Positions 36,282 to 62,167 of a stretch of DNA of 64,000 nucleotides are shown piece by piece (the stretch's first letter is position 1; every line of letters starts with the position of its first letter). Both the position numbers and the translations under genes were made by a program. The notes below the pieces were generated by a model. It searched no databases, was not told the DNA's origin, and was given only the letters and a program-made list of their open reading frames with translations. Origin of the DNA: Candidatus Nomurabacteria bacterium (GTDB lineage: Bacteria; Patescibacteriota; Minisyncoccia; Phycocordibacterales; UBA9973); NCBI GenBank assembly GCA_026395995.1, contig JAPLXQ010000010.1, positions 218,179 to 282,178 on the forward strand. Direction: 5' to 3'.

Positions 36282-36950
36282 GTGGGTTTTATTATGAAAA
36301 AAGATTTACAACAAAAAGCAAAGAAATTAAGAGCTGAGGGTTATTCAATTAAAGAACTTCAGAATATTTTAAATGTATCAAAGAGTACAATTTCTTTATG
36401 GGTAAGAGATATTGAACTTTCTAAAGATGCTCAAATACGCATTCAAAATAATTACACAAAAGGTCAATTGGCTTCTCAAAAAACTATACAAAAACAAACT
36501 CAAGAAAAAAATATTTTAGCTGATAGTTTCGCAGAAAATATTATCAAACAAATAGATATTTCTTTTGAAAATTCATTAGTATTGTGTTCGATGATATATC
36601 AGTGTGAGGGTAGTAAAAACATAAAAGATTCTGTTACTTTTACAAATTCTGATCCAGCTCTAATAAAGAATTTCTTGTTCTTTTTTAGAAAAAGTTTTCA
36701 TTTAGATGAAAGTAAATTCAGAGTTTTAATGCACTTACATAGTTATCATAATGAAAATACGCAAAAGAAATTTTGGTCTAATATTACAAATATTCCCACA
36801 AAAAATTTTTTAAAAACTTTCAATAAAGAAAGTACTGGTTCTTATAAAAAAGAAGGGTATCAAGGATGTATTCAAGTTCGTTATCGTGATGTTGTAATGG
36901 GTAGAAAAATTCAAGCGGTTGCAAAAAAGTTTATGGAAAGGTATAAATAG
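36282..36950 (+). CDS. HTH-domain protein with putative single-motif LAGLIDADG-like endonuclease domain (paralog A)
   Basis: N-terminal HTH (KKLRAEGYSIKELQNILNVSKSTISLWV); core LVLCSMIYQCEGSK...NSDP...FLFFFRKSF is homologous to 61541-62167 and resembles LAGLIDADG helix plus beta-sheet. Ends 8 nt before tRNA-Trp. Confidence 0.4.
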   Translation: MGFIMKKDLQQKAKKLRAEGYSIKELQNILNVSKSTISLWVRDIELSKDAQIRIQNNYTKGQLASQKTIQKQTQEKNILADSFAENIIKQIDISFENSLVLCSMIYQCEGSKNIKDSVTFTNSDPALIKNFLFFFRKSFHLDESKFRVLMHLHSYHNENTQKKFWSNITNIPTKNFLKTFNKESTGSYKKEGYQGCIQVRYRDVVMGRKIQAVAKKFMERYK

Positions 36951-36957
36951 TATGCAC

Positions 36958-37028
36958 GGGCCTATAGTTCAGTGGTAGAATAAACGTCTCCAACACGTTT
37001 GACCGGGGTTCGAATCCTCGTGGGCCCG
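36958..37028 (+). tRNA. tRNA-Trp (anticodon CCA)
   Basis: Acceptor gggccta/tgggccc, loop ctCCAac. Confidence 0.75.
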
Positions 37029-37051
37029 CAAAAATTTGATATACTAGTTAC

Positions 37052-37465
37052 ATGGAAAAAGAACATCTAAAAGTGAATGTGGCTGTAGGTGTCGTCATTA
37101 AACAAAACGACAAATATCTTTTAGTGCAAGAAAAAAAGCCTAGTGCTTATGGTCTTTGGTGTTTACCAGCAGGTAGAGTCGATATTGGTGAATCAATCGA
37201 ACAAGCAGCAATAAGAGAAGTAAAAGAAGAAACAGGGTATGATATAGAGCTGATAAAAGAGCTAGCTGTTTTCCATCCTATGACAAATCCTACTGAGGCT
37301 GTAAAACATGCTTTTGAAGCAAAAATAATAGGTGGAGAATTAAATTTTCCAAAAGATGAAATGCTTGATGCTAGATGGTTTACATTTGAGGAAATAAAAC
37401 AAATGGAAGACAAACTTAGAAATGAATGGATATTCAAATCTATAACTATATTAGAAGGTAAATAG
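37052..37465 (+). CDS. NUDIX hydrolase
   Basis: Nudix box GRVDIGESIEQAAIREVKEETGY. Confidence 0.75.
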   Translation: MEKEHLKVNVAVGVVIKQNDKYLLVQEKKPSAYGLWCLPAGRVDIGESIEQAAIREVKEETGYDIELIKELAVFHPMTNPTEAVKHAFEAKIIGGELNFPKDEMLDARWFTFEEIKQMEDKLRNEWIFKSITILEGK

Positions 37466-37482
37466 ACTTTCCCAACAAGAGT

Positions 37483-37510
37483 GGTTCCAACAGCCAATAC
37501 ACTGCCCGCA
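37483..37510. repeat. 28-bp direct repeat, copy 1 (second copy 38133-38161)
   Basis: ggttccaacagccaa(t/c)(c)acactgcccgca found just after the stop of two consecutive genes. Confidence 0.6.
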
Positions 37511-37538
37511 TCTTTTTTTTTGATGTATAATTACAGCT

Positions 37539-38111
37539 ATGAAGAAAAATTTAGCTTTTGATTTTGATGATGTTCTTTGCGATACAACCAAAGCATTTTT
37601 ACTATTTCACAAGAAAAAATATGGAAGTACGATTCCTTATACCACTGCTAAAGTTGTATTATATAAAAACTTACACATTAGTGAAAAAGAAGAAGATAAA
37701 AGATGGAACGAATTCTTTCAAGATACAACATTTTGCTATCCTGCTCCATCAAAAAATCTTATAGAAATACTGCAAATACTCAAGAAGGATTACCGTCTAA
37801 TAGTAATATCAGCTCGAGATAAAAAATGGCAATATAATGTCTTTTCTTGGATAGAAAAATACGTGCCTAATGTTTTTGAAGAAATTATATTTCTTGATAG
37901 TAGGGGAGTTAAAAAGAGTAAAGGGATGATTTGCAGAAAAAATAAAACAATAGCCTTAATTGAAGACGACCCAGAGCACATAAAATCATGTGTTGATTTT
38001 GAAATGCCAGTTATTGTTTTTGACAGACCTTGGAACAAAAAACTTAAGAAAAGTATACCGAGGATTAAAAGTCTATCTCAAATAAAAAAGATACTATCTA
38101 CAAAATTTTAA
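37539..38111 (+). CDS. HAD-superfamily 5-prime(3-prime)-deoxyribonucleotidase-like hydrolase
   Basis: HAD motif I FDFDDVLCDT. Confidence 0.55.
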   Translation: MKKNLAFDFDDVLCDTTKAFLLFHKKKYGSTIPYTTAKVVLYKNLHISEKEEDKRWNEFFQDTTFCYPAPSKNLIEILQILKKDYRLIVISARDKKWQYNVFSWIEKYVPNVFEEIIFLDSRGVKKSKGMICRKNKTIALIEDDPEHIKSCVDFEMPVIVFDRPWNKKLKKSIPRIKSLSQIKKILSTKF

Positions 38112-38132
38112 CCCTTATTTATCAATAAACCC

Positions 38133-38161
38133 GGTTCCAACAGCCAACCACACTGCCCGCA
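38133..38161. repeat. 28/29-bp direct repeat, copy 2
   Basis: ggttccaacagccaaccacactgcccgca, followed by terminator hairpin aaaagagcttaaatggctctttttt. Confidence 0.6.
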
Positions 38162-38265
38162 ATGATACAAAAAAGAGCTTAAATGGCTCTTTTTTGTATT
38201 TATATTTTAGTTGATTATTTTAGGTAAAAGTATTAAGGTTAAAGAAAACAGTAAATTTAAAAAAA

Positions 38266-38877
38266 ATGAAATATATTTTTGATTTAAAATACTCTGAGCT
38301 TGCGCCAGATGTTATAAAAAGTTTATCAGAATTACCTAGGACTGGCTGGGTAGATAGAAAAGTTACAAACCCTGAAACAGTCCAAGAGCATATTATTGCT
38401 GTAAGAGAATTAGTTATTTCAGAGATACAAAATCTAGATGATTTTTCTCCTCAAGAAATAAATGAAACATTAGATATGTTAGAGGTTCATGACTGGCCAG
38501 AATCAGATAAAAAAGTTGGTGATATTGTAATTGTTACATACGATCTAGAAGAGAAGAAAAGATTGAAAGAATTAAAATTCAAACTCGAACTTGAAGCGAT
38601 GACTAAAATTTGTACTCCGCTTGGAGAGAGGGGCAGAAGAATTTTTGATTTATGGATGAGGTTCGAAAAGAAAGAGGATCGTATTTCAATTTTTGCTAAT
38701 CAAGTAGATAAATATCAACCTTTTGAAAAGGCATTTGAATATGAAGAAAGAGGTGAAAAGAAAGTATCAACTCAGGAATTTATTGATTATTCAGAAAAAG
38801 TCATAGTATATCCTGCTTTATTGAGAAGACTAGAAAATCTTAAGCTAAAATTAGCTAATTTAAAAAAGAGCCACTAG
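38266..38877 (+). CDS. HD-domain phosphohydrolase (YfbR-like 5-prime-deoxynucleotidase family)
   Basis: H...HD pattern (ETVQEHIIAV ... EVHDWPESD). Confidence 0.55.
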   Translation: MKYIFDLKYSELAPDVIKSLSELPRTGWVDRKVTNPETVQEHIIAVRELVISEIQNLDDFSPQEINETLDMLEVHDWPESDKKVGDIVIVTYDLEEKKRLKELKFKLELEAMTKICTPLGERGRRIFDLWMRFEKKEDRISIFANQVDKYQPFEKAFEYEERGEKKVSTQEFIDYSEKVIVYPALLRRLENLKLKLANLKKSH

Positions 38878-38892
38878 AGGCTCTTTTTATTG
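38866..38892 (+). terminator. hairpin terminator
   Basis: aagagccactagaggctctt followed by a T-run. Confidence 0.5.
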
Positions 38893-39022
38893 TTAATAGT
38901 CTTGAAAAATCATTACATTTATGATAATCTTTGTTTATTGGTGTGTTTGTCGGCGTAGTTGTTTTGGTATATAACATTAAATACTAAACATACGTTGCTT
39001 AAAAATATAAATAGGTTTTCAT

Positions 39023-39095
39023 GTCGGCGTAGCTCAGTTGGTAGAGCATAGCACTCATAAAGCTAAGGTCACAGGTTCAATCCCTGTCGCCGACA
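39023..39095 (+). tRNA. tRNA-Met or Ile2 (anticodon CAT; elongator-type)
   Basis: Acceptor gtcggcg/cgccgac, loop ctCATaa; lacks initiator features. Confidence 0.7.
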
Positions 39096-39154
39096 CAAAT
39101 TATAAGAAGTATATAGGGTAGTATATATTACTGTCACCATGATATAATATATAG

Positions 39155-39826
39155 GTGCCAGTCTATAAAAAGGTAAATAAAGATTTTTTTAAAAAATGGT
39201 CACCTGAAATGGCTTATGTTTTAGGTTTTTTATTTGCTGATGGAAATATTGTTCATACAAAAAGAAATACTTGGTTTTGGTCTTTACAAATTACCGATAA
39301 GGATATTTTAATAAAGATAAAAAAAGAAATTAATTCATCACATAAGGTTTCGTTTAAAAAGAAGGTTTTAAATAATAAACAGTTGTATCGTTTACAGATT
39401 GGAAGCAAAGAAATGTGTGAAGATTTAATTAAATTAGGTTTAACTCCACAAAAAAGTAAAACAATGATATTTCCACAAGTTCCAGAAAAATATTTTTCTG
39501 ATTTTTTGCGTGGTTATTTTGATGGAGATGGTGGAGTTTGGTTTGGTTTAAAAAATAAAAAAAATATTAATCAATCTTATGTAATTAATGTTTGCTTTAC
39601 TTCAGGTAGTAAAGATTTTTTAATCTTCCTGAGAGGTATTTTGAATAAAAAATCTATTTTAGGTGGTTCTTTGGTAGAAAAAGAAAGAGGGTTTGATTTA
39701 AAATATAGTATCAAAAATTCTTTGATTTTATATAAAATAATGTATAATAGTAATGTTCTCAAAAATAACCTGTTTTTAGAAAGAAAAAGAGCTATTTTTG
39801 AGAAGTTTATATGTTTGCGATCGTAG
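39155..39826 (+). CDS. LAGLIDADG homing endonuclease (double-motif, single-chain type)
   Basis: Two motifs: LGFLFADGNI and LRGYFDGDGGVWF. The stop codon overlaps the first 10 nt of the intron-containing tRNA. Confidence 0.7.
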   Translation: MPVYKKVNKDFFKKWSPEMAYVLGFLFADGNIVHTKRNTWFWSLQITDKDILIKIKKEINSSHKVSFKKKVLNNKQLYRLQIGSKEMCEDLIKLGLTPQKSKTMIFPQVPEKYFSDFLRGYFDGDGGVWFGLKNKKNINQSYVINVCFTSGSKDFLIFLRGILNKKSILGGSLVEKERGFDLKYSIKNSLILYKIMYNSNVLKNNLFLERKRAIFEKFICLRS

Positions 39827-40130
39827 CTCAACTGGTTAGAGCACCCGCCTGTAGATTCGTGCAGCTTTCTGTCGAAATGGCAGATTGAAACTCTTTGGGA
39901 TATCGGTGAAGGCTAAGTTTGCCGTTTTGGTGAATATGCGAATACCGAGGGAACCCTTCCACATTTTTACTTTATAATAAATAAGTAAAGAGAAGGGGCG
40001 CCGTAGAGACTAGATACCGAAGCACCTAAATTCATTTTAATGAACACGGTGAAGATATAGTCCACGCCTTTATGAAAATATTGGATTTAGTGCACGTGGG
40101 AGGTTGCCGGTTCAAGCCCGGTCGATCGCG
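39817..40130 (+). tRNA. tRNA-Asp (anticodon GTC) interrupted by a group I-like intron; exons 39817-39852 and 40093-40130
   Basis: The exons assemble into a cloverleaf with acceptor gcgatcg/cgatcgc, D-arm gctcaactggttagagc, anticodon stem cccgc/gtggg, loop ctGT|Cac, discriminator G; the intron sits between anticodon positions 35 and 36. Confidence 0.6.
39853..40092 (+). other. group I-like intron (about 240 nt) within the tRNA-Asp anticodon loop
   Basis: The 5-prime splice site follows U and the intron ends in G; gtgcagc can pair with exon ccugu (P1); P7 halves AGACTAg... and AAGATATAGTCc match the conserved R/S elements; size matches known bacterial tRNA group I introns. Confidence 0.6.
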
Positions 40131-40206
40131 CAAATGAAAAACACCTATTTAAGTATAGGTGTTTTTCTGTATAGTGATTGGATAGGAGAACTGGTATAAT
40201 CATTTT

Positions 40207-40722
40207 ATGAAACTACTACTTGTTATTAAAGATAAAGATATTTTCCCCAATGAAGTGTCTAAAGAAGATGTAGTTTATAAAATTCGTTCCGCTGTGAAAG
40301 CTATTGTTAAAGATTCACATGGAAAGATTGCATTGGTTGGTACAAAATATAGATTATTGCCTGGTGGTGGAGTTGAAGAAGGAGAGACTTTTGTAAATGC
40401 AGTTAAGAGGGAATGTCGTGAAGAAGTCGGTTGTAATATAGAGATTGATAAAGAAATTGGTTTCACGGAAGAATATAGAGCACAAATTGAAAGACATCAA
40501 CAAACACATTTTTTTCTTGCGCATGTTGTCGGAGAAAAAGGTAAACCAGAAACAACTCAAAATGATGAACAGGGGATAGAAGTTGATTGGTATGAGTTAG
40601 ATTCTGCTATTGCTCTACTCGAGAAAGAAGTAATAGAAATACCATTTTTAAGTTACCATTCATGTTTTAATGTTAGAACTCATTTAGTAATTTTAAGGGA
40701 ATTAAAGAAATTAGCAGAATAA
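40207..40722 (+). CDS. NUDIX hydrolase
   Basis: Nudix box GGGVEEGETFVNAVKRECREEVG. Confidence 0.75.
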   Translation: MKLLLVIKDKDIFPNEVSKEDVVYKIRSAVKAIVKDSHGKIALVGTKYRLLPGGGVEEGETFVNAVKRECREEVGCNIEIDKEIGFTEEYRAQIERHQQTHFFLAHVVGEKGKPETTQNDEQGIEVDWYELDSAIALLEKEVIEIPFLSYHSCFNVRTHLVILRELKKLAE

Positions 40723-40764
40723 ATAAATAAAATCGGCCAGCTATTTAGCTGGCCGATTAAGTAT

Positions 40765-41475
40765 TTATTTTTTTAATTTTTTTTCGTTGAAAAATTCTAT
40801 GAATTTTTCAACGACAGGAATATTACCATTAAGGATTTCATAAATATCTGAACCTCTCAATAACTCATAAGTAATTGTTGGTATATCTCTTTCATAGCCT
40901 GCATATGTGCCAAGGCATCCTGGAGTAGGGTAGCCCATTTCATCACCCCTAGTTATTTTTTTATAAGGTGATACTTCAAACAAGGCATTTGCTAAATCTA
41001 TGACTCCTGTCTCATCTTTACCATTTGCATTGATCTGTGGTTCTTTAAATGAATGTAGGGTCAAGATTGCTTTTGGTTTGTAATTATTAATTAAATAAAT
41101 TAATCCCTGGTTTTCAGGTTCACTACCAGCGAAAGGTCCCGGAGGATAACGCTTGTTGAATGCTTCAGCATTCCAGTCCAGTGTCGGGAGATTCCGATTA
41201 AGGTCAACCCCTTTTCCGTTTGTACGTTGCCCTAAAGCTAGTCCATCAGGATTTGTTCTTGGTACCAATAGTACATTTATATTTGCATATGGAAACCTTA
41301 TTCTCCAAGGTGTTTCAAAATGTTCTGCCAACCAAAGCCCTTCTATTTCGTCACCGTGAACAGTGGCTAAAATTAGAACTAATGGTAAGTTTTGCTTTTT
41401 TCTGTTTTTAAAGTATAATTGTGCAATTAAATTATTATTTAATGCCGACTTTCCGTAAATAATATTTCGTTTCAT
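40765..41475 (-). CDS. M14-family zinc carboxypeptidase-like protein (MpaA / gamma-D-Glu-DAP peptidase-like)
   Basis: HGDE zinc motif, NPDG, DLNRN, LHSF motifs. Confidence 0.6.
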   Translation of the reverse strand: MKRNIIYGKSALNNNLIAQLYFKNRKKQNLPLVLILATVHGDEIEGLWLAEHFETPWRIRFPYANINVLLVPRTNPDGLALGQRTNGKGVDLNRNLPTLDWNAEAFNKRYPPGPFAGSEPENQGLIYLINNYKPKAILTLHSFKEPQINANGKDETGVIDLANALFEVSPYKKITRGDEMGYPTPGCLGTYAGYERDIPTITYELLRGSDIYEILNGNIPVVEKFIEFFNEKKLKK

Positions 41476-41571
41476 TCTCAGTATTTTTAATTGTTTTTCT
41501 TAAAAGTAACATGTTTGTGTATTTGAGTCAAATCGTTTTGTTTTTAAAAATAAAAATGATATAGTTTTGTT

Positions 41572-43341
41572 ATGAAAAAAGAAAAAACATCATGGAATTT
41601 TGGTTTATTATATAAAAATGAAAAAGACCCACAAATCGAAAAAGACATGCAAGAAATAGAAAATCTTTGCGGTAATTTTGAAAAAAAATATAAAAAATTA
41701 GTTTTTATAAAAAATCCATTAATACTTTCTAAGGCTATGGATGATTACGAAAAGCTTTGCGGATCTTTAAATAAAAGTAAACCATGGTGGTATTTTACAT
41801 TACGTAAAGATATAAATGCTATGGATGAAATAGCACAATCAGCAAGTACAAAATTTCAACAAAGAATTACTGTGGCTACAAATAAAATAACTTTTTTTAC
41901 TCTTGAAATAGGAAAAATTCCAGCACAAAAACAAAAATCTTTTCTTGCAAATAAATCTCTTTTAAAATATTCTTATTTTTTGGGGCGTATTTTTGAAACA
42001 GCAAAATATAGTTTATCTGAAAAAGAAGAACAATTAAAAGATTTACTTTCACAGTCTAGTTATGAAATGTGGGTTGATGGACAAGAAAAAGTTTTAAACC
42101 AGCAAACAGTAGAACATAAAGGTAAACAAATTCCTATTTCACAGGCTATGAATATATTGGCAGATTTACCTAAAAAAGATAGAAGGGATCTACATCAATT
42201 GATTTTGAAATCTTTAAAATCAATTAGCTATTTTGCTGAAGCAGAAATGAATGCCATCTGTAATTATAAAAAAGTTAATAGTGATCTTCGTGGTTTTAAA
42301 AAACCATATAGTTCTACTATTCTTGCTTATGAAAATGATGAAAAAACAATTGAGACTCTTGTGAGTACTGTCACAAAAGGTTTTAAAGTTAGTCGTCGTT
42401 TTTACAAACTTCATTCAGAACTTTTAGGTGAAAAACAAATTACACTGGCTGACCGTGGTGTGAAGATAGGAGAAATAAAAAAGAAATTTGATTTTAATAC
42501 TTCTGTTGAAATTGTTTCAAGGGCATTTACTAGTGTTGATAAAAAATATGCAGATATGTTGCATAGTTTTATTTCAAACGAACAGTTTGATGTTTACCCT
42601 AAAAAGGGTAAAAGAGGGGGAGCATATTGTTGGGGTATGGGTTCATTGCCAATATTTGTTTTATTGAATCATTCAGACAATATTAGGTCAGTAGAAACAT
42701 TAGCTCATGAAATGGGTCATGCTATTCATGGTGAGCTCAGTAGAACGCAACCGGTTTTGTATCGTGGGCATCCTATCTCTACCGCTGAAGTTGCTAGTAC
42801 CTTTTTTGAACAAGTTGCTATCAATAGTATGGAATCATTACTTTCAGATGAAGAGAAAATAATTTTTCTTCATAATAAAATAATGGGTGATATCACTACT
42901 ATTTTTAGGCAAATAGCGTTATTTAATTTTGAATGTGAATTACATCAAAAAATTGCTACTGAGGGTCAAGTATCAAAAGAAGAAATATCACGTCTTATGG
43001 CAAAAAATTTAAGATCATATCTCGGTGATTCTGTAAAAGTAGAAGATGAAGATGGGTATTGTTTTGTGAGCTGGTCACATATACGTCGCTTTTTTTATGT
43101 TTATTCATATGCTTATGGACAGCTAATTAGTCGCGCATTATTTGAGAATTGGAAAAAAGACCCAGCATATGCTAAAAAAGTAGAACAATTTTTATCTGCT
43201 GGACGATCAATGAGCCCTAAAGATATTTTTAAATCTATCGGTATAGATACTTCTGATCCAAAGTTTTTTGAAACAGGAATTAAAAGTATTGAAAATGATA
43301 TTAAAAAGCTTGAGCTTCTTGCAAAAAAGTTTAAAAAATAA
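41572..43341 (+). CDS. pepF: oligoendopeptidase F (M3B family)
   Basis: HEMGHAIH zinc motif; length and overall pattern of M3B. Confidence 0.8.
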   Translation: MKKEKTSWNFGLLYKNEKDPQIEKDMQEIENLCGNFEKKYKKLVFIKNPLILSKAMDDYEKLCGSLNKSKPWWYFTLRKDINAMDEIAQSASTKFQQRITVATNKITFFTLEIGKIPAQKQKSFLANKSLLKYSYFLGRIFETAKYSLSEKEEQLKDLLSQSSYEMWVDGQEKVLNQQTVEHKGKQIPISQAMNILADLPKKDRRDLHQLILKSLKSISYFAEAEMNAICNYKKVNSDLRGFKKPYSSTILAYENDEKTIETLVSTVTKGFKVSRRFYKLHSELLGEKQITLADRGVKIGEIKKKFDFNTSVEIVSRAFTSVDKKYADMLHSFISNEQFDVYPKKGKRGGAYCWGMGSLPIFVLLNHSDNIRSVETLAHEMGHAIHGELSRTQPVLYRGHPISTAEVASTFFEQVAINSMESLLSDEEKIIFLHNKIMGDITTIFRQIALFNFECELHQKIATEGQVSKEEISRLMAKNLRSYLGDSVKVEDEDGYCFVSWSHIRRFFYVYSYAYGQLISRALFENWKKDPAYAKKVEQFLSAGRSMSPKDIFKSIGIDTSDPKFFETGIKSIENDIKKLELLAKKFKK

Positions 43342-43358
43342 TACTTATTTACTAAAGC

Positions 43359-43399
43359 AAAAACATAAAAACCTATATTATATAGGTTTTTATGTTTTT
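43359..43399 (+). terminator. rho-independent terminator of pepF
   Basis: aaaacctatattatataggtttttatgttttt. Confidence 0.6.
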
Positions 43400-43463
43400 G
43401 CTTGACTTTATATTTATATTGTATTAGACTATAATTCTCGTTCATTGAAATATAAATAACTTG

Positions 43464-43505
43464 CCACCAGAAGAAAGCTTTTTTGGAAGGTTTTCTTCTG
43501 GTGGT
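43464..43505 (+). promoter_or_regulatory. 13-bp perfect inverted repeat in the leader of the downstream gene
   Basis: ccaccagaagaaa gcttttttggaaggt tttcttctggtgg; overlaps the spurious N-terminus of the tracked ORF. Confidence 0.4.
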
Positions 43506-43575
43506 GAAATTGACATGGCGTCTTTATTTACTACATCAGAGTAAAAATAAAAACATTAAATTTTTTAAAAAAATT

Positions 43576-44196
43576 ATGGAAGAAGTAGTAGGAGTAGTAG
43601 AACAAAAAAAACCAAGTATTTTAAAAACAATTGGGGTTACAATTAAAAACCCACAATTAGCTTTAAGGGCAATTTCGCTCAGTAAAGTAAAAAGAAAAAA
43701 AGTTTTGGACTTGATCGAACCAAAAGCACGACTAAGAAGCGGTCTGCGTGTTTGTGATCAAAACGATGTCAGGTACAAAACAAGTTTGTCTTGTAATTTC
43801 AGCAATAGTTTAAAAAGAAACTTTGTGATTTATGGAGAAAAAAATGTTGTATATAACATTGTACCAGAAAAACTAACCACATATTGCTTCAAAAAAACAA
43901 AAAATAGGACGGTAATCGATGGTTCTGATTTTGCTTCAGAATTGAAAGGCAAAAAAAATACTGGAATAAAAATCCGGAAATTACTTGTGAAAAATCCTGA
44001 ATTGGTTGATTCAAGATTTAAAACTACTGGTAATGAAGCACTTATCTATTTAATGTTTTTTGATTCAAAAATGCAATCAAAAAAAGATAAATGGATACCT
44101 TCAATGTATATTCATGATGGCGTAGCATATAGCTACGACATAAATATTGAAACATCATTGAATAGCAATTGTATTGCTGTGATCATGAAATCTTAA
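43576..44196 (+). CDS. hypothetical protein
   Basis: ORF; start placed at MEEVVG downstream of the leader hairpin; no recognisable domain. Confidence 0.4.
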   Translation: MEEVVGVVEQKKPSILKTIGVTIKNPQLALRAISLSKVKRKKVLDLIEPKARLRSGLRVCDQNDVRYKTSLSCNFSNSLKRNFVIYGEKNVVYNIVPEKLTTYCFKKTKNRTVIDGSDFASELKGKKNTGIKIRKLLVKNPELVDSRFKTTGNEALIYLMFFDSKMQSKKDKWIPSMYIHDGVAYSYDINIETSLNSNCIAVIMKS

Positions 44197-44221
44197 GTGT
44201 AAGTTATATTGGCTACACTTA

Positions 44222-44251
44222 AAAGCCTCGCAAATTGCGGGGCTTTTTTAT
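44222..44251 (+). terminator. hairpin terminator
   Basis: agcctcgcaaattgcggggct followed by TTTTTAT. Confidence 0.55.
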
Positions 44252-44292
44252 TGTCAAAATTTATTTGACTTGTCTGTCTCTATTTAGTATAA

Positions 44293-54232: not shown

Positions 54233-54237
54233 TATTG

Positions 54238-54308
54238 CTGCCAGACCTGGACTCGAACCAAGATAGTCTCCTTCAGAGGGAGATGTCCTACCATTAGACG
54301 ATCTGGCA
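54238..54308 (-). tRNA. tRNA-Gln (anticodon CTG)
   Basis: Sense tgccagatcgtctaatggtaggacatctccctctgaaggagactatcttggttcgagtccaggtctggcag; U1-A72, loop ctCTGaa. Confidence 0.65.
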
Positions 54309-54430
54309 ATGTTTATATTCTGTCTTTTAAAAACCTTCTTCCAAATCGATTCTTTAAATCTTCTGTATACCCTATATAAAGATTTTCATCTTTTGAACTT
54401 TTTAAAACATAAGTGTAATACATCTTGTTT

Positions 54431-54495
54431 ATGTCCTACCATTACCCGCCCGCAACGCCTGAGCTTGCGATGGCGGGCGGGGACGATCTGGCAAT
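54431..54495. repeat. partial duplicate of the tRNA-Gln 5-prime region, itself split by a 38-bp GC-rich palindrome
   Basis: atgtcctaccatta + cccgcccgcaacgcctgagcttgcgatggcgggcgggg + acgatctggcaat reproduces 54283-54310 of the tRNA, with the palindrome replacing a single G. Confidence 0.6.
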
Positions 54496-54566
54496 ACTTT
54501 AACAGTAGCTTAAAAAAGCTAATTATTCAACTTTATTTTATTATTGTGCTATTATAGTACAATAAA

Positions 54567-55154
54567 ATGATTCCAAAAATAACGAACATTATCCGTTTTA
54601 TCAGGGAAACGATTAAACATCCACAACAAAATGGTGCTATTGCTCCGAGCTCTAAAAAACTCGCAATTTTAATTACACAAAAAGCTGAACTAGATAATGC
54701 AAAAGTAATTGTGGAAATAGGTTCTGGTGACGGTGTTTTTACTAAAGAAATTTTTAAAAAAATTAATAATAAAGTTCCTTATTTTGCCATTGAAATTAAT
54801 AAATTTTTTGTTGATCAATTTAAAAAAACTTATCCAAATTTAACAATCTATCATGATAGTGCTCAAAATATTGATAAGTGTTTAGTAAAGTCTGGACATA
54901 CAAAATGCGACCGAGTTATTTCTGGTCTTCCTTGGACAGCCTTTGACGAAAAAATGCAAAAAGATATTATTACAAAAATTTATAATTCATTAGAAGAAGG
55001 TGGTCTTTTTGTAACCTTCTCTTATTATCCTTTGAATAATTTACCAGATGGAAAGGCTTTTCATAAAACATTGAATAGTTTATTTAAAAGTGTAAATAAA
55101 TCTGAAGTTGTCTTAAATTTCCCTCCAGCTTTTGTATATATTTGTAGAAAATAA
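54567..55154 (+). CDS. class I SAM-dependent methyltransferase-like protein
   Basis: Motif I IVEIGSGDGVFT. Confidence 0.5.
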   Translation: MIPKITNIIRFIRETIKHPQQNGAIAPSSKKLAILITQKAELDNAKVIVEIGSGDGVFTKEIFKKINNKVPYFAIEINKFFVDQFKKTYPNLTIYHDSAQNIDKCLVKSGHTKCDRVISGLPWTAFDEKMQKDIITKIYNSLEEGGLFVTFSYYPLNNLPDGKAFHKTLNSLFKSVNKSEVVLNFPPAFVYICRK

Positions 55155-55199
55155 TTAATTCACACAGACTTCATTATTCTGTGGTACAATAAGCTTAAT

Positions 55200-56852
55200 A
55201 TGAAAAATTTCTTAAATACAATAAAATTGTACGTGTTTGGGCATAAAATTTTGAGTGTTATTTTATTAATAGTACTTATTTTTATTGGACGTTATGTTTA
55301 TCAAAAAGTTACTAGTACTGCCGGTGATACTAGATATATCACTACTAAGGTTGAAAAAGGCACTATTATTGCTTCTGTTACTGGTACAGGTCAAGTGAGT
55401 ACTTCCGATCAAATTGATATCAAGTCAAAAGTTTCTGGCGAAATAACTTGGGTTGGTGTTTCTGCTGGTCAAACAGTTAGCCAAGGCCAATCTCTTCTTA
55501 ATATTGATTCCAAAAATGCACAAAAAGCTGTACGTGATGCACAAGTAAATCTCGAAGGTGCAAAGATTTCTTTAGAAAAATTAAAAATACAAAATTCAAA
55601 TCAAAATTTAAGTGCTGATTTATTAAAAGCTTATGACGATGCTATTAGTTCTGTCGCTGTGACATTTTCTGATTTAACATCTCAGCTAAACGGATTGGAT
55701 ACTATTTTAGCACAACAAAATCTTTCCGATAATGTCGCACGAGTCAGTGGTACTACAGCTTTAAATTATAGAAATAAAGCAGAGTCTTCATACTATGAAG
55801 CCAAGAATTCATTTGAAAAAAGTAGAATAAATTTTGTTGATATTAATCATAACTCACCAAAAACTGATATTGAAAACATTTTAAATAAAACATACGATAC
55901 GACTTCTGTTTTAATTGATGCTATAAAAAATACTAAAAATTTTGTAGATTATATTGCTGAAGATACTAATACTGTCACTACGTTTATTTCTAATCAATCT
56001 ACGCTCGCGTCTTATCTTGATGCAATGAATAGTCATTTTTCTAGTCTTAGTTTGATTAAAAAGACTATTCAAGATAGTAAAGATTCTTTTTCAAATAGTG
56101 ATTTAGATATTCAGTCAGCAGAATTAAGTATCAAACAAAAAGAAAATGCATTGCAAGATGCAAAAGATAATTTAGCAGATTACACTGTCCGAGCACCTTT
56201 TTCTGGTGTAATTACTGTTTTAAATGCAAAACTTGGCGATACTGTACCGTCTACAGTGGCAACTATTATTACAAATCATCAGCTAGCTGAAATATCTTTA
56301 AATGAAGTAGATGTTGCTAAAATAAAAATTGGTGAAAAATCTATTCTCACTTTTGATGCAATTCCTGATTTGAGTATTTCTGGAAAAGTGGAAGAGGTTG
56401 ATTCTGTCGGAGCTATTGCTTCTGGAGTCGTTACTTATAATATTAAAGTGAGTTTCGATACTCAAGATTCTAGAGTGAAACCTAGTATGAGTGTGTCAGC
56501 AGCGATTATTACTGATATTAAAAAAGATGTATTGCTTGTGCCAAATAGCGCAGTAAAATCAAATAATAATGGTAGTTATGTAGAAATGTTTAATATACCA
56601 TTACCAAAAGCTACTGATGGATTACAGGGAAGGATTTCAACAATTACTCCAAATAAAATTCAAGTTCAAGCAGGTTTATCAAATGATTCACAAACAGAAA
56701 TTATTTCAGGAATTAAAGAAGGAGATGAAGTGGTTTCTCGTACTATTTTACCTTCAGCAGTCAAATCAGCTACTACGACCCCTAGTCTTTTTGGTTCTTC
56801 ATCTGGAAGTGGAAATAGGGCTCCTGCAGGTGCCACTCCTCGTGGTAATTAA
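55200..56852 (+). CDS. efflux transporter periplasmic adaptor subunit (MacA/HlyD family)
   Basis: N-terminal TM, long coiled-coil, lipoyl/beta-barrel motifs (VRAPFSGVITVLNAKLGDTV). Confidence 0.7.
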   Translation: MKNFLNTIKLYVFGHKILSVILLIVLIFIGRYVYQKVTSTAGDTRYITTKVEKGTIIASVTGTGQVSTSDQIDIKSKVSGEITWVGVSAGQTVSQGQSLLNIDSKNAQKAVRDAQVNLEGAKISLEKLKIQNSNQNLSADLLKAYDDAISSVAVTFSDLTSQLNGLDTILAQQNLSDNVARVSGTTALNYRNKAESSYYEAKNSFEKSRINFVDINHNSPKTDIENILNKTYDTTSVLIDAIKNTKNFVDYIAEDTNTVTTFISNQSTLASYLDAMNSHFSSLSLIKKTIQDSKDSFSNSDLDIQSAELSIKQKENALQDAKDNLADYTVRAPFSGVITVLNAKLGDTVPSTVATIITNHQLAEISLNEVDVAKIKIGEKSILTFDAIPDLSISGKVEEVDSVGAIASGVVTYNIKVSFDTQDSRVKPSMSVSAAIITDIKKDVLLVPNSAVKSNNNGSYVEMFNIPLPKATDGLQGRISTITPNKIQVQAGLSNDSQTEIISGIKEGDEVVSRTILPSAVKSATTTPSLFGSSSGSGNRAPAGATPRGN

Positions 56853-56858
56853 AATAAG

Positions 56859-57560
56859 ATGATTGAAGTAAAAGATTTAACAAAAACATACAAGACAGGT
56901 GATGTAGAATTTCAAGCCTTGAAAGGCGTGAGTTTTACAATTGCTGATGGAGAATTTGTGGCTATTATGGGTCCATCTGGATCTGGTAAATCAACACTGA
57001 TGCATATTTTAGGAGCACTGGATAATCCTAGCAGTGGAACTTATTTTTTAGACGGAAAAAATATTGCGTCTTTTTCTGACGACGAGTTGGCAGATATTCG
57101 CAAAGACAAAATAGGTTTCGTTTTCCAATCTTTTAATTTACTTCCTAGAACGACAGTCTTACGAAATGTAATGTTACCAATGGTTTATAATGGTATTTCA
57201 GTCGAAGAAAGAGAAAATCGAGCGAAACATGCACTCGTAGCTGCTGGTCTTGATGAAGAACATTTCCTTCATCTTTCAAATCAAATTTCTGGTGGACAAA
57301 TTCAACGTGTGGCTATTGCTCGGGCTCTTGTAAATGATCCATCACTTATTTTAGCTGATGAACCGACAGGGAATTTGGATTCTAAAACAGGAGAAATCGT
57401 TCTGGGGACTTTTGAAAAATTAAATAAAGAACTTGGACGCACAATTATTTTAATTACACATGAGCAAGATGTGGCTGAACATGCAGATAGAATTATTTTT
57501 ATTAAAGATGGTCAAATTTTGTATGATAAACCAACACAAAAGAGATTGGCTAAAAAATAA
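56859..57560 (+). CDS. ABC transporter ATP-binding protein (MacB/LolD-type)
   Basis: GPSGSGKST, LSGGQIQR (variant), [11 protein letters not shown]. Confidence 0.85.
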   Translation: MIEVKDLTKTYKTGDVEFQALKGVSFTIADGEFVAIMGPSGSGKSTLMHILGALDNPSSGTYFLDGKNIASFSDDELADIRKDKIGFVFQSFNLLPRTTVLRNVMLPMVYNGISVEERENRAKHALVAAGLDEEHFLHLSNQISGGQIQRVAIARALVNDPSLILADEPTGNLDSKTGEIVLGTFEKLNKELGRTIILITHEQDVAEHADRIIFIKDGQILYDKPTQKRLAKK

Positions 57561-57561
57561 T

Positions 57562-58770
57562 ATGAAAACTACAGATATATTACATGAAACATATTCTTCA
57601 CTTCTTGCGAACAAGGCTCGGTCTGGTTTGACGATGCTAGGTATTATTATTGGTATTGCTTCTGTAATAGCGATGATTTCGATTGGTAATGGGGCAAAGG
57701 CTTCCATTCAATCAAGTATTGAAGGTCTTGGTTCTAATCTTTTAACAATTCTTCCGGGGATTGTGCAACCAGGCAGAGGAATTGTTTCCTCTGGAAGAGG
57801 TACAGCACAAACTTTAAAAAATACAGACATTGCTGTAATTCAATCACTCGACGGTATAGGTGCTATTTCTCCAGAGGTCTCAAGACGTTTTCAAATTGTT
57901 GCTACAGGGAATAATACCAATACGACTGTGACTGGAGCAACTCCTGAATATATGACTGTACATAATCTTGTGATTGGTGATGGATCATTTATTTCTGATT
58001 CTAACCAAAGAAGTATTGGTCGGCAAGCAGTCCTAGGTGCTACTGTTGCTACAGACCTTTTCCCTGATCAAAGTCCTATTGGTAAATCAATTCGTATTAA
58101 TAAAGTAAATTTTACTGTTATTGGAGTCGTTGCGGCTAAAGGTGGCGCAGGATTTTCTGGACCAGATGATATGGTTTTTGTACCACTTTCGACAATGCAA
58201 AAAATTCTTTCTGGTGCAGATTATCTTTCTACAATGTCAGTTAGTGTTACTAATAAAGATGATATGAGTGCTGTAAAAGATGCTGCTACAATTGCGCTTC
58301 TCAATAAACATAATGTGGCTGAAGCAGATTTTTCAATTATTTCTCAAGAAGATATTTTAGGGACACTTTCACAAGTGATAAATACTTTTACGATTTTTCT
58401 CGCAGCGATTGCCTCAATCTCTTTGCTTGTCGGAGGAATTGGAATTATGAATATGATGCTGACGACTGTGACTGAACGTACAAAAGAAATTGGTTTACGA
58501 AAAGCTATCGGGGCGAAAAGACGAGATATAAATATGCAATTTTTAGCTGAAGCTGTGGCTCTGACATTTACCGGAGGAGTAATAGGAGTAATTCTTGGGT
58601 GGCTGATATCATTTGGAGTGAGTGCGACAGGGCTCGTGCAAACGCAAGTCTCACTTTCTTCTGTTCTGTTGGCTTTCGGCGTGTCGGCCTTGATTGGAAT
58701 AATTTTTGGATATTATCCTGCTCGTCGTGCTGGAATGCTAAACCCAATAGATGCTTTGAGGTACGAATAA
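57562..58770 (+). CDS. ABC transporter permease (MacB/FtsX-like fold)
   Basis: N-terminal TM, large periplasmic domain, C-terminal three-TM FtsX block. Start moved to MKTTDIL. Confidence 0.8.
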   Translation: MKTTDILHETYSSLLANKARSGLTMLGIIIGIASVIAMISIGNGAKASIQSSIEGLGSNLLTILPGIVQPGRGIVSSGRGTAQTLKNTDIAVIQSLDGIGAISPEVSRRFQIVATGNNTNTTVTGATPEYMTVHNLVIGDGSFISDSNQRSIGRQAVLGATVATDLFPDQSPIGKSIRINKVNFTVIGVVAAKGGAGFSGPDDMVFVPLSTMQKILSGADYLSTMSVSVTNKDDMSAVKDAATIALLNKHNVAEADFSIISQEDILGTLSQVINTFTIFLAAIASISLLVGGIGIMNMMLTTVTERTKEIGLRKAIGAKRRDINMQFLAEAVALTFTGGVIGVILGWLISFGVSATGLVQTQVSLSSVLLAFGVSALIGIIFGYYPARRAGMLNPIDALRYE

Positions 58771-58826
58771 AAAGCTCCTAATCTATGGAGCTTTTTTTGT
58801 TTTTCTGCTAAGATAGAGTTTATATT

Positions 58827-60665
58827 ATGGATTTAAAGAAAATTAGAAATTTTAGTATCATAGCACACATTGACCACGGGAAATCTACCTTGGCTGATAG
58901 AATGCTCGAAATAACTCATACGATTGAGACACGTAAAATGCGTGACCAGGTTCTTGATTCTATGGAGCTTGAACGAGAAAGAGGTATTACTATCAAAATG
59001 CAACCAGTGCGTATGGAATATAAGATGCACCCCCTCCCAACCTCCCCCTTAGCGAAGGGGGAGGAGAACACCACATACACTTTAAACCTTATAGATACTC
59101 CAGGACATATAGACTTTTCCTATGAAGTTTCTCGTGCTTTAAAGGCCGTAGAAGGGTCTATTTTGCTCGTTGACTCAACTCAGGGGGTCCAGGCTCAAAC
59201 ACTTACTACACTCGCTATGGCTCGTGAGGGAGGGCTTAAAATCATCCCTGTACTCTCAAAAATAGACTCACCACTTTCTCGTGTAGATGATGTCAAAGAT
59301 GAAGTTATAAAGCTTTTAGATTGTGATCCAGATGAGATACTTCTCGTTTCTGGACGTACAGGCGAAGGTGTAGAAAATCTTTTAAATGAAGTCATAAAAA
59401 GAGTGCCACCTCCAGTCGAAACTTTTATAGACACCACTAGTTGCCGTGCACTTATTTTTGATTTTAAATATTCAAATCACAAGGGTGTGATTGTTTATGT
59501 GCGAGTTCTTGATGGAAAAATTTCCAAAAATGAAAATTTACTTTTTTCTGTTTCTAAAGAAAAATTTACCTCACTCGAAGTTGGAACATTTTCTCCAGAA
59601 GAAACTCCTTGTGAATTTTTAAAAGCAGGTGAGACAGGATATATTGTGACTGGTATTAAAAAGCCTGGTATTGCGAGCGTCGGAGATACTATTACATTAT
59701 TGAAAAATCCATTGCCAGAACTTCCTGGATATATGCAACCTCGCCCTGTCGTCTGGGCTTCAGTTTTCCCTGAAGATGCAGATCAATTTAACGATTTGAA
59801 AGCAGCCCTCGGCAAACTTCGTCTTTCTGATTCATCTTTTTCTTACGAAGAAGAGTCTAGTGGATCACTCGGACGTGGTTTTCGTTGTGGTTTTCTTGGT
59901 ATGCTTCATTTGGAAATTGTTATTGAAAGATTGAAAAGAGAATTTAATTTGGCCTTAGTGGTGACTACTCCATCTATTACTTATGAAGTGACTTTAAATA
60001 ATGGTAAAAAAGAAAAAATATATTCACCATATTTTTTCCCTGAAGAGGGAAACATAAAAGAAGTTTTTGAGCCTTGGGTTTTTGTAAAAATTATTACCCC
60101 ATCTATTTATCTTGGTCCAATAATGCAATTGCTTTTTGTGCATGAAGCAGAAGTGGGTGAGACAGAAAGTTTTGGAGACAATCGCTCATCAATATCACTC
60201 AAAATGCCACTACGTGAATTGATGCGAAACTTTTTTGATGAATTGAAATCTGTCTCTTCTGGTTATGCTTCTATTTCCTATGAAATTGCTGAAATGCGTG
60301 AAGCCAATGTGACTCGTTTAGACTTGCTTGTGGCTGAAGAAATTATCCCAGCTTTCTCTCGAGTTGTATCTAGAAAAAGAGTTCAAGAAGATGCTGAAGA
60401 AGCCGTAGAAAAATTACATAAACTTTTACCAAGGCAAATGTTTGCGACAAAAATCCAAGGTAAAGCCTTGGGTAAAATTATCTCCTCAAAAACCACTCAA
60501 GCTTTTATGAAAGATGTGACACAGCATATGTATGGAGGAGATATTACTCGTAAAATGAAGCTTCGAGAAAAACAAAAGAAAGGTAAAAAGAAGATGAAAG
60601 AGCGTGGACGCGTAAATATACCTCAAGAGGTTTTTCTTAAGATGATGAGAAGTGGGGAAAATTAA
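58827..60665 (+). CDS. lepA: elongation factor 4 (LepA)
   Basis: [21 protein letters not shown], LepA-specific C-terminal domain. Carries an in-frame GC-rich palindromic insertion (59028-59072) in the G domain. Confidence 0.9.
   Translation: [612 protein letters not shown]
59028..59072. repeat. GC-rich palindromic mini-element inserted in-frame within lepA
   Basis: gcaccccctcccaacctcccccttagcgaagggggaggagaac; stem ctccccctt/aagggggag; encodes [14 protein letters not shown] where LepA orthologs have only a few residues. Confidence 0.6.
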
Positions 60666-60813
60666 GATAGAGCTTTAAGCTCTATCTTAACGGAATATTG
60701 GTGTATAAAGTAAGATCATACTAACGATTATAAAGACGCATAAAACTGTCCAGATAACTTGTATTTTCTTTTTGTGTTTCTTGTGTAAAAGCATATACTT
60801 ATATTAGCAAATT

Positions 60814-61191
60814 ATGAAGAATTTTCAAGAGCAAAATATTTTTAGTAGAATTATACATTCCAAACTTGGTCTGATTTTTTTGGCTATTTTTATTATATTT
60901 TTCAGTTGGAATGTCATAAGATTTGCTGGAAAAGATAAAGAAATTATTAAAAATAAAAATATATCAGCAGACAAAATAACACAATTACAACAAGAAAAAG
61001 ATAGGCTGACAAAAGATATAAACAATCTAAATACACAGAGCGGTGTAGAAGAAACGATTCGTGACAAATTCGGTTTGGCGAAAGAAGGTGAGGGGATGAT
61101 CGTGGTAGTAGATACTCAAGATCAAACAACTGATCCAAATATTCAAGCAAATACTACTATTTTGTCTAAAATAAAAGGGTGGTTTAAATAA
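60814..61191 (+). CDS. septum formation initiator family protein (FtsB/DivIC-like)
   Basis: Single TM plus coiled coil (ITQLQQEKDRLTKDINNL) and the conserved C-terminal DKFGLAKEGE motif. Confidence 0.55.
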   Translation: MKNFQEQNIFSRIIHSKLGLIFLAIFIIFFSWNVIRFAGKDKEIIKNKNISADKITQLQQEKDRLTKDINNLNTQSGVEETIRDKFGLAKEGEGMIVVVDTQDQTTDPNIQANTTILSKIKGWFK

Positions 61192-61240
61192 AATACTTTA
61201 TGATATAATGTAAGTCTTAATAATTAATTTTAAATAATTT

Positions 61241-61480
61241 ATGAAAAATGTAACAATATATTCAACACCGACATGTCATTTTTGTCACTTAGCAAAGGAC
61301 TTTTTTAAGGCAAATAACGTGGCTTATACAGAATACGATGTAGCTGCAGATATGGAAAAGAGGAAAGAAGTCGTTGAAAAAAGTGGTCAAATGGGCGTGC
61401 CAGTTATAATTATTGGAGAAGATTTAATTGTCGGTTTCAATAAACCAAAAGTAGCTGAATTGCTCGGAATAGCCATATAA
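61241..61480 (+). CDS. glutaredoxin-like protein (NrdH/Grx family)
   Basis: CHFC redox motif after IYSTPT; thioredoxin-fold length. Confidence 0.65.
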   Translation: MKNVTIYSTPTCHFCHLAKDFFKANNVAYTEYDVAADMEKRKEVVEKSGQMGVPVIIIGEDLIVGFNKPKVAELLGIAI

Positions 61481-61540
61481 CATATAAGAACTTACTTAAT
61501 GTCCCTAGATTTGTTTAAGGTTCTATGTTAATATTAAATT

Positions 61541-62167
61541 ATGAGAGGTATACAAACTTCTAATAAAATAGTTCAAGAAATTAAAAAACTTAGATCTGAA
61601 GGGGATAGTATTCTTGAGATATCAAAAATAGTTGGTAAAAGTAAGTCTATTGTTTCAAAATACGTTAAAGATATAAAAATTCTTCCACAGTATGAATATC
61701 TTCTAAAAGAAAAACAAGGAGGTAGTAAGTCGCGTTCTTTAAAAGAGTGGAAGGATTCAGAGATAAAATCAAAAAAAATAATTAATACTCTTTCTAGTAA
61801 AGAAAAATTATTAATTCTAGCATGTTTATATTGGGGAGAAGGAACTAAAACTGAACTTAATATTATAAATAGTGATCCAGAAATGCTTCGGGTTTTTATA
61901 ATTTCTTTAAAAGAATTAGGAATAGATAATTCTAAAATAAAAGCAACAATAAGAATTTATGAAGATTTAAAAGATAACGATATTATTAATTTTTGGTCAA
62001 AGGCTATTGATCTTCCAAAAGAATGTTTTAAAGGTATTAATTTATTAAAAGGTAAAAAAGTTGGTAAATTAAAACATGGTATGTGTAGAATAAGGGTTGA
62101 AAAAAGTAAAGATTACTTTAAACTAATTATGTCTATAATAGAAAGAATTAAAGACTTGTCCTTATAG
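61541..62167 (+). CDS. HTH-domain protein with putative single-motif LAGLIDADG-like endonuclease domain (paralog B)
   Basis: HTH (KKLRSEGDSILEISKIVGKSKSIVSKYV); LILACLYWGEGTKTELNIINSDPEMLRVFIISLKELGI resembles the LAGLIDADG helix plus following beta-sheet. The stop overlaps tRNA-Arg by 10 nt. Confidence 0.4.
   Translation: MRGIQTSNKIVQEIKKLRSEGDSILEISKIVGKSKSIVSKYVKDIKILPQYEYLLKEKQGGSKSRSLKEWKDSEIKSKKIINTLSSKEKLLILACLYWGEGTKTELNIINSDPEMLRVFIISLKELGIDNSKIKATIRIYEDLKDNDIINFWSKAIDLPKECFKGINLLKGKKVGKLKHGMCRIRVEKSKDYFKLIMSIIERIKDLSL

Follow-up and report, generated by a model that had tools for sequence, protein, structure and literature searches.

Genes That End on tRNA Genes

The window considered here is a stretch of 64,000 nucleotides (nt) of contig JAPLXQ010000010.1 from a Candidatus Nomurabacteria genome (Patescibacteria/candidate phyla radiation, ~32% G+C), in which ARAGORN and Rfam together find 12 transfer RNAs (tRNAs). 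Three endonuclease-type open reading frames (ORFs A, B, and C) terminate at the 5′ ends of tRNA genes, as the original prediction from the bare sequence had claimed. ORF A stops 7 nt before tRNA-Trp, and ORFs B and C run 10 nt into tRNA-Asp and tRNA-Arg(CCU), respectively. Such gene-plus-tRNA units are widespread, often with a leftover 5′ half of the same tRNA in front. The arrangement is apparently undescribed, and no account of it was found in the searchable literature. With families A, B, and C denoting the three ORFs and their relatives, the units consist of the following features, all on the forward (+) strand:

36258-36263 (+): TATAAT −10 box of the ORF A cassette, a promoter inferred from sequence; aligns with a TATAAT-type box in 42 family-A loci
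36265-36274 (+): operator-like palindrome GTTATGTAAC, located after the −10 box and before the ORF A start codon
36294-36950 (+): ORF A, 218 amino acids (aa), with N-terminal helix-turn-helix (HTH), long helix, and LAGLIDADG-like core
36958-37029 (+): tRNA-Trp(CCA), partner of family A (ARAGORN, Rfam)
39116-39137 (+): relic of the tRNA-Asp 5′ half (GGGTAGTATATATTACTGTCAC), from the D-loop to the uninterrupted anticodon loop CTGTCAC
39143-39148 (+): TATAAT −10 box of the ORF B cassette, with TG before it, inferred from sequence; position conserved in family-B loci
39155-39826 (+): ORF B, a free-standing two-motif LAGLIDADG homing-endonuclease gene with a GTG start
39817-39852 (+): exon 1 of tRNA-Asp(GUC), ending at U35; its positions 8-10 are the ORF B stop codon
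39853-40092 (+): group I intron (RF00028), 240 nt, at tRNA position 35/36
40093-40131 (+): exon 2 of tRNA-Asp; the joined exons fold as a 75-nt tRNA-Asp(GTC)
61501-61508 (+): GTCCCTAG, a short anticodon-loop relic of tRNA-Arg(CCU) that precedes the ORF C promoter region; a weak call, as only a stub is left
61541-62167 (+): ORF C, a 208-aa paralogue with HTH and LAGLIDADG-like core
62158-62231 (+): tRNA-Arg(CCU), partner of family C (ARAGORN, Rfam); its positions 8-10 are the ORF C stop codon

The ORF A frame spans 36282-36950, and the GTG at 36282 is the in-frame upstream start adopted originally; the true start is likely the ATG at 36294, which gives the 218 aa seen in homologues. ORFs B and C both end in a TAG supplied by the tRNA (U8-A9-G10 in tRNA-Asp). 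At the three junctions of the window, scans with promoter and terminator consensus sequences returned fewer sites than, or no more sites than, shuffles of the AT-rich DNA, a result that speaks neither for nor against separate tRNA promoters within the ORF ends.

Pairing of Genes and tRNAs across Patescibacteria

Loci with tRNA-Trp, tRNA-Arg(CCU), or tRNA-Asp were picked by presence of the gene; the counts therefore describe pairing and not site occupancy. For family A, one genome per species was scanned with the family-A alignment, yielding 80 loci. A metagenome scan with the family-C alignment gave more than 570 relatives, of which the best 80 loci were examined and 79 could be scored. Family B is represented by nine lineages (53-100% identity).

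Family A is partnered by tRNA-Trp in about 78 of 80 loci. ARAGORN places the tRNA on the same strand directly 3′ of the gene in 74, and inspection by eye adds three (L032, L057, L072) that the program misses owing to a contig end or an odd T-arm. These loci come from Parcubacteria, Microgenomates, Saccharimonadia, Peregrinibacteria, CPR2, and other groups. Among the best-matching family-C loci, tRNA-Arg(CCU) follows the gene directly in 78 of 79, and the surrounding tRNA-Phe, Pro, Gly, and Ala genes vary in place and orientation. All nine family-B lineages end on U8-A9-G10 of tRNA-Asp. Weaker paralogues are docked on tRNA-Tyr (4/35 sites), tRNA-Thr(GGU) (2/26), tRNA-Ala(GGC), and tRNA-Arg(UCU). 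Each subfamily is thus locked to one tRNA identity across the phylum. At two loci (L028, 2840-2912; L054, 2823-2895) tRNA-Trp lies inverted upstream of the family-A gene and none follows the gene; the usual unit is here broken by a local inversion.

In 56 of 82 family-A-type loci and in at least 49 of 72 family-C loci the ORF stops within the tRNA, most commonly at positions 8-10. Overlap lengths peak at 10, 15, and 38-39 nt, which are the first in-frame stops available in the conserved tRNA sequence, and some database homologues terminate in translated tRNA ("...PRSSMDRTAAS"). The genome is compact, with short intergenic spacers throughout the window, and adjacency of genes and tRNAs could in principle arise by chance. 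This can practically be dismissed, because the same pairs recur in independent loci (~78/80, 78/79, and 9/9), in very distant lineages and, for family C, amid shuffled flanks. The tie between endonuclease-type genes and tRNA genes, proposed from three examples, is real and general.

Relics of tRNA 5′ Halves

The 250 nt in front of each ORF were searched for similarity to the first 30-40 nt of the downstream tRNA. A partial copy of the tRNA-Arg(CCU) 5′ half, ~40-90 nt before the start codon, is present at many family-C loci; at L105 the relic GTCCCCGTAGCTCAATGGATAGAGCAACCCCGTCCTA is directly followed by GTTGACA, a −10-like box, and the ORF. A tRNA-Arg profile (nhmmer, E ≤ 0.01) matches 14 of 75 family-C upstream regions vs. 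2 control regions, and 10 of the 14 matches end at model position 36-37. Shorter relics (GGATAGAGCA..CGTCCTAG) are far commoner in this family. Of 74 loci, 33 contain the motif GT[CT]CT[AT]G (1.4% of control windows), 21 the D-loop motif (0.8% of controls), and 16 the D-loop and anticodon motifs at tRNA-like spacing (1/4062 controls). The stub GTCCCTAG in the window is positionally homologous to the relics of other family-C loci in which ..CGTCCTAG runs directly into TTGACA.

In four subfamilies the anticodon of the relic is that of the downstream tRNA: CCT in family C, TCT at L121 (the paralogue on tRNA-Arg(UCU)), CCA at L076 (...GGTCTCCAAA/TATTTGAC), and GTC in family B. None of the 5′-half relics keeps the tRNA 3′ half. 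Two tandem tRNA-Arg(CCU) 5′-half relics precede the cassette at L139 (2420-2470), and the first and shorter one perfectly reproduces 21 nt from the start of the functional tRNA at the same locus, which suggests a recent second event.

The relics bear directly on where the genes entered. The original prediction took tRNA gene starts as the target of a mobile family, that is, free-standing homing endonuclease genes inserted independently just before +1, with the tRNA 5′ boundary as their site. The tight clustering of ORF ends at this boundary (+7 to −39 nt), which leaves other elements no room, agrees with this model. However, the upstream flanks of the tRNAs are unconserved, so that half of such a target would be variable; the model predicts no duplication of the tRNA; and the relics end at tRNA positions 37-38 and not at +1. 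Insertion at tRNA starts is therefore improbable and the original target probably wrong. Because the relics end where they do, the original break is better placed in the anticodon loop.

Relics at different loci resemble each other more than their own tRNA, and they carry or abut −35 and −10 boxes. This suggests that they have been recruited, probably as promoters and perhaps as operators resembling a target half-site. A difference between relic and tRNA in the D-stem was considered as an immunizing change: relics mostly read GAGC and functional tRNA-Arg mostly GAAC, but GC at this point is common to both in 6 of 17 loci, and no conclusion is drawn. Two further observations concern fragments of other kinds. 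A paralogue docked on tRNA-Ala(GGC) (L120, 506-1204, − strand) shows, ahead of its −10 box, a relic of the Arg(CCU) type (ACGTCCTTAG), which hints that a cassette switched to a different tRNA. At L014 and L070 an inverted fragment resembling a tRNA 3′ half (TGGTGCGCCGG.CTGGATTCGAACC...) lies ~60-130 nt upstream of the tRNA-Tyr-linked paralogue, unlike the same-strand 5′-half relics of other loci.

ORF B and the Split tRNA-Asp

ORF B was described at the outset as a double-motif LAGLIDADG enzyme on an intron-containing tRNA-Asp, and both parts hold. It matches Pfam PF14528 in two stretches (6.5e-8) and phrog_4645, "endonuclease" (3.9e-47), and shares 27-40% identity with phage DOD endonucleases. 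In the family-B alignment the motifs read ..GFxxADGN and ..GYFDGDGG, and D29 and D125, the two catalytic Asp residues, are invariant. Judged by these two motifs, each ending in a conserved acidic residue, ORF B is a bona fide LAGLIDADG enzyme. Homing endonucleases of this type cleave double-stranded DNA site-specifically and leave 4-nt 3′ overhangs.

The tRNA-Asp gene is missed by tRNA finders (ARAGORN) because it is split. Its joined exons form a canonical 75-nt tRNA-Asp(GTC), and the intron matches RF00028 with 49.8 bits (E = 1e-11), just below the gathering score of 50. A U precedes the 5′ splice site and a G ends the intron, with boundaries ..CCTGT/AG...GTG/CAC. Eight of the nine family-B lineages have the intron, and a relic (TGGTTAGTATAT..CCTGTCAC) lies 3-5 nt before the −10 box in eight of nine; its unsplit CTGTCAC spans the 35/36 site. 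In the lineage without an intron (L165-L167), the ORF is 56% identical to ORF B and the anticodon loop of the tRNA reads CTTGTCAC vs. CCTGTCAC in the relic. Possible readings are a resistant form of the tRNA and an inactive enzyme.

LAGLIDADG proteins can serve as group I intron maturases, and ORF B adjoins an intron-containing tRNA. The proteins might thus act on RNA, as maturase- or chaperone-like factors that bind the tRNA or intron encoded beside them. Such a role is very improbable: tRNA-Trp and tRNA-Arg(CCU) have no intron in the window, the tRNA-Asp of one family-B lineage is intronless as well, and the HTH together with a palindromic site point to DNA binding. Moreover, no protein is needed in vitro for self-splicing of the patescibacterial group I introns that interrupt tRNA-Asp and tRNA-Asn at position 35/36 (Nakagawa et al., 2026, PMC13011429). 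The related suggestion of the original prediction, that the genes encode tRNA-processing factors, found no evidence in this analysis.

The tRNA-Asp intron of the window resembles the introns of that study in site, in size (~240 nt), and in having no internal ORF. Endonuclease genes were sought there only inside introns, and mobility was judged limited (PMC13011429); a LAGLIDADG gene abutting the tRNA 5′ end is not mentioned. Two features were seen in the neighborhood of family-B genes. A second group I intron (61-68 bits) sits on the opposite strand just upstream of the tRNA-Met/ORF B/tRNA-Asp block (L162 and L163, 1487-1707, − strand; L170, 1062-1289, − strand) and probably marks another intron-split tRNA gene missed by tRNA finders. 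Just 3′ of the intron-containing tRNA-Asp there are also small ORFs with a GIY-YIG domain (84-87 aa; L170, 2950-3204; L171, 2608-2871), which give this locus a second gene of endonuclease type.

A Protein Family with HTH and Probable LAGLIDADG-Like Core

ORFs A and C are homologous paralogues, as proposed (26% identity, E 5e-15). Searches of Pfam, NCBIfam, and PHROGs match only their N-terminal HTH, of the resolvase/Tc3 type, and assign the core to no family; Pfam WhiA matches neither protein. A profile of A and C compared with family B (HHalign) and with Protein Data Bank (PDB) sequences likewise aligns through the HTH alone, with no sequence-level link for the core. AlphaFold models built from the family alignments are confident (predicted local distance difference test, pLDDT, 93.1 for ORF A and 87.8 for ORF C), and in both a three-helix HTH is followed by a long helix and then an alpha/beta core.

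The LAGLIDADG fold has an alpha-beta-beta-alpha-beta-beta-alpha core with the motif on the first helix. In A and C the first core helix ends in (Y/W)xxEGxK, and the Glu-Gly pair occupies the place of the catalytic Asp/Glu-Gly of LAGLIDADG enzymes. E105-G106 (A numbering) and N118 are invariant among 24 diverse members of both families, and K108 and D120 are nearly so. The core is likely, with clearly better than even probability, a single LAGLIDADG-like domain, and the proteins probably act as dimers. Single-motif LAGLIDADG enzymes have passed from homodimers to single chains, and fused core-core forms, as expected of a dimerizing unit, also exist here. P0431 (396 aa) has the order HTH-core-core, and P0412 (531 aa) combines an extra HTH with two complete units; the latter has high-GC character and may lie outside Patescibacteria.

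The best structural match of both paralogues is WhiA, which similarly combines a LAGLIDADG-type fold with an HTH. In WhiA, however, two degenerate LAGLIDADG domains without catalytic acidic residues are followed by a C-terminal HTH, whereas in A and C the HTH is N-terminal, the core domain single, and the Glu invariant. For the structural expectation of the original prediction, a LAGLIDADG-like core is likely rather than proven. The proposed HTH-fused, possibly undescribed subfamily is partly supported. The family is large: with clustering at 50% identity, an exhaustive profile search returns 7,546 clusters at E ≤ 1e-3, of which 1,014 reach E ≤ 1e-30. In family A, six residues absent from family C (C98, C104, H147, H149, H152, C192) are nearly invariant and may form a metal-binding site.

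Proposed Origin of the Cassettes

The order of elements in a cassette would be a relic of the 5′ half of tRNA X, a promoter, an endonuclease-type gene, and a complete tRNA X. Insertion at the anticodon loop is the simplest history for the arrangement tRNA(1-37), then promoter-ORF-tRNA(1-76), with no 3′ half in between. The anticodon loop of tRNA gene X would be cleaved by the enzyme near positions 35-38, as the geometry of a LAGLIDADG site centered on the anticodon would predict. The break would be repaired from a donor that contributes the gene and a fresh tRNA 5′ part, or the whole tRNA. The 5′ part borne by the cassette would be joined to the resident or a co-converted 3′ half, and the displaced old 5′ half would stay as a scar, later partly reused as promoter or operator. 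Since the tRNA gene would be rebuilt at the DNA level, no intron is needed. The ORF would abut the tRNA because the cassette carries or restores it and, as the ORF runs into the tRNA, gene and tRNA would be heritable only together. Anatomy, pairings, relics, and conservation are the observed basis of this scheme; cleavage, its position, immunity, and current activity are its hypothetical part.

The proposed cut zone adjoins group I intron sites, at 35/36 in tRNA-Asp and at 36/37 in cyanobacterial tRNA-Arg(CCU), where the intron has a LAGLIDADG ORF. In tRNA-Asp the intron splits exactly the sequence that is unsplit in the relic and may thereby give immunity: it would shield the resident gene from the neighboring endonuclease gene and may travel along with it (homing in trans).

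Several points weigh against this history. The tRNAs of families A and C have an intact anticodon loop, so that self-cleavage must somehow be avoided, and one family-B lineage (L165-L167) has an intronless tRNA-Asp. The target position is deduced from the relics, and in family A a clear relic is seen at a single locus (L076). The relics are conserved beyond what neutral scars would be, which implies some present function. Occupancy of the tRNA-Trp and tRNA-Arg(CCU) sites is biased by the choice of loci through gene presence. Finally, co-divergence with the neighboring ribosomal protein L33 (see below) and phylum-wide retention of length and motifs are unlike a purely selfish, fixed endonuclease gene.

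On balance, we narrowly favor the view that the anticodon loop was where the cassettes entered tRNA genes, which they restored in DNA, and that the cassettes are now old, largely vertically inherited, and possibly domesticated. A more far-reaching version falls somewhat short of an even chance. Here, a patescibacterial superfamily of HTH and LAGLIDADG-like proteins (~7,500 clusters at 50% identity) would, together with classical LAGLIDADG enzymes, colonize tRNA genes in a new way: a cut in the anticodon loop, a cassette of promoter, gene, and tRNA 5′ part that rebuilds the tRNA, conversion of the scar into promoter or operator, and one tRNA identity per subfamily. In this version, the ORF-less 35/36 introns would find their missing homing endonuclease, acting in trans, in the tRNA-Asp member.

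If this is true, homing endonuclease genes would have, besides self-splicing introns and inteins, a third way to reside inside an essential gene while leaving it functional, namely by rebuilding the invaded tRNA gene in DNA with an imported 5′ part. The ORF-less tRNA introns of Patescibacteria, recently judged nearly immobile, would gain a plausible partner for mobility and immunity. A large unannotated family, now labeled "helix-turn-helix" or "hypothetical," would be defined in one of the biggest bacterial radiations, and candidate sequence-specific nucleases against tRNA genes would be at hand. For annotation, the units matter in that ORFs stop within tRNAs, tRNA finders can be misled by pseudo-tRNA halves, and gene callers sometimes extend translation into the tRNA.

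Homing or Domestication

In at least 35 of 67 loci, rpmG and tRNA-Trp flank the family-A gene. Downstream of tRNA-Trp a neighbor is common to only 12 loci and no large conserved cluster exists; with synteny too poor on this side, the upstream rpmG was taken as host marker. Pairwise identities of family A and of the adjacent rpmG product (L33) are correlated (Spearman 0.47). No pair of family-A proteins is much more similar than the host marker and there are no cross-lineage outliers, within the low resolution of the short rpmG. The conflict between gene and host phylogenies expected of a homing element is not seen in family A. Because it diverges together with rpmG, family A looks old and mostly vertical. 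Its length is constant at ~218 aa with strong conservation, and length and motifs are kept down to 35% identity. These features speak for purifying selection on genes that have long been resident and have descended mainly vertically. The three places were originally regarded as independent; a picture of three independent, sporadic, and recent insertions is probably wrong, given subfamilies locked to one tRNA throughout the phylum and the vertical descent of family A.

In family-A leaders, the −10 box is closely followed by a conserved palindrome (GGTTATATAACC) that lies over the expected transcription start. GTTATRTAAC occurs in 12 of 68 leaders vs. 0 of 6138 control windows, and the looser TTATRTAA in 25 of 68 vs. 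0.5% of controls. RNAalifold predicts no consensus RNA structure at the palindrome in 42 family-A leaders, and it is therefore read as a DNA site and not as an RNA element. Repression of the promoter by its own dimeric HTH product would fit. By now the A cassette may be useful to the cell or, at the least, under tight self-control.

This raises the possibility that the proteins, at least in family A, are domesticated regulators, i.e., non-cutting WhiA-like factors that bind their own operator and control their own expression and that of the co-transcribed tRNA. An endonuclease origin is compatible with such a role, and the palindrome, the phylum-wide position between rpmG and tRNA-Trp with co-divergence together with rpmG, and the constant, strongly conserved length all speak for it. 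Nevertheless, the Glu-Gly of the motif helix, absent in WhiA-type proteins, is invariant in A and C. Regulation alone also fails to explain the attachment of each paralogue to a tRNA of its own, the upstream 5′-half relics of that tRNA, and the identical architecture of ORF B, a bona fide LAGLIDADG enzyme; empty and fragmentary sites exist as well. Taken together, this explanation seems rather unlikely.

Comparison of the same tRNA loci in relatives, suggested originally as a way to find empty sites, gave a mixed answer. An empty site (rpmG-115 nt-tRNA-Trp) exists in L095/L115 and the tRNA-Tyr and tRNA-Thr paralogues are patchy, but family A tracks rpmG. The gene is split into fragments at L061 and L079. 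Patchy paralogues on other tRNAs, relics well preserved in some lineages of family C, split genes, and shuffled family-C flanks suggest that cassettes have been gained, moved, or lost repeatedly. "Still homing" and "domesticated" are not mutually exclusive states.

The DNA between rpmG and ORF A has features of its own. rpmG (35779-35942) is followed by a terminator-like hairpin (~35960-35985), and in the region 36016-36215 (+ strand) a promoter-like TTGTGATATAAT is followed by ~190 nt that fold strongly (minimum free energy −65.1 kcal/mol, z −5.5 vs. shuffles). The 3′ end of this stretch looks tRNA-like, with a 7-bp GAGGACG/CGTCCTC stem and a T-arm-like GGAGTTCAACTCTCC. The region has no Rfam match at E ≤ 0.1 and no ARAGORN call, and is a candidate for an unannotated small RNA.

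Comparison with Known Systems

The free-standing endonucleases of T4-like phages ("intronless homing": SegB, SegF, SegG) resemble the cassettes in that the gene lies outside any intron or intein, beside its presumed conserved target, and is co-inherited with flanking markers. SegB is associated with the tRNA gene cluster of these phages. In contrast to the cassettes, the Seg enzymes are GIY-YIG proteins of phage genomes, and their genes are not known to overlap a tRNA, to be tied one-to-one to a tRNA identity, or to come with a duplicated half of the target.

In fungal mitochondria, partial C-terminal duplications of atp6 and cob are flanked by LAGLIDADG and GIY-YIG ORFs (PMC6279837). As proposed here, the invaded gene is repaired in DNA by an imported piece and a partial duplicate is left as a scar, the displaced fragment becoming a pseudogene in the fungal case. 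What is duplicated in fungi is the 3′ end of an organellar protein gene, whereas the cassettes duplicate the 5′ half of a tRNA gene in a lineage of free-living bacteria. Furthermore, the ORF overlaps the restored tRNA and the scar abuts a promoter, unlike in the fungal case.

The tRNA-Asp unit also recalls collaborative homing, which reportedly operates between F-CphI and an ORF-less psbA group I intron in cyanophage S-PM2 (Zeng et al., 2009; Bonocora and Shub, 2009). In both, an endonuclease gene (here ORF B) lies beside a gene whose endonuclease-free intron interrupts the likely target, and the tRNA-Asp intron could similarly confer immunity and be moved in trans. Unlike the phage system, ORF B overlaps the tRNA, is preceded by a relic of the uninterrupted target, and is located on the chromosome in Patescibacteria. 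A collaborative-homing-like tRNA-Asp unit would qualify the conclusion of limited mobility (PMC13011429), since endonucleases were sought there inside introns only.

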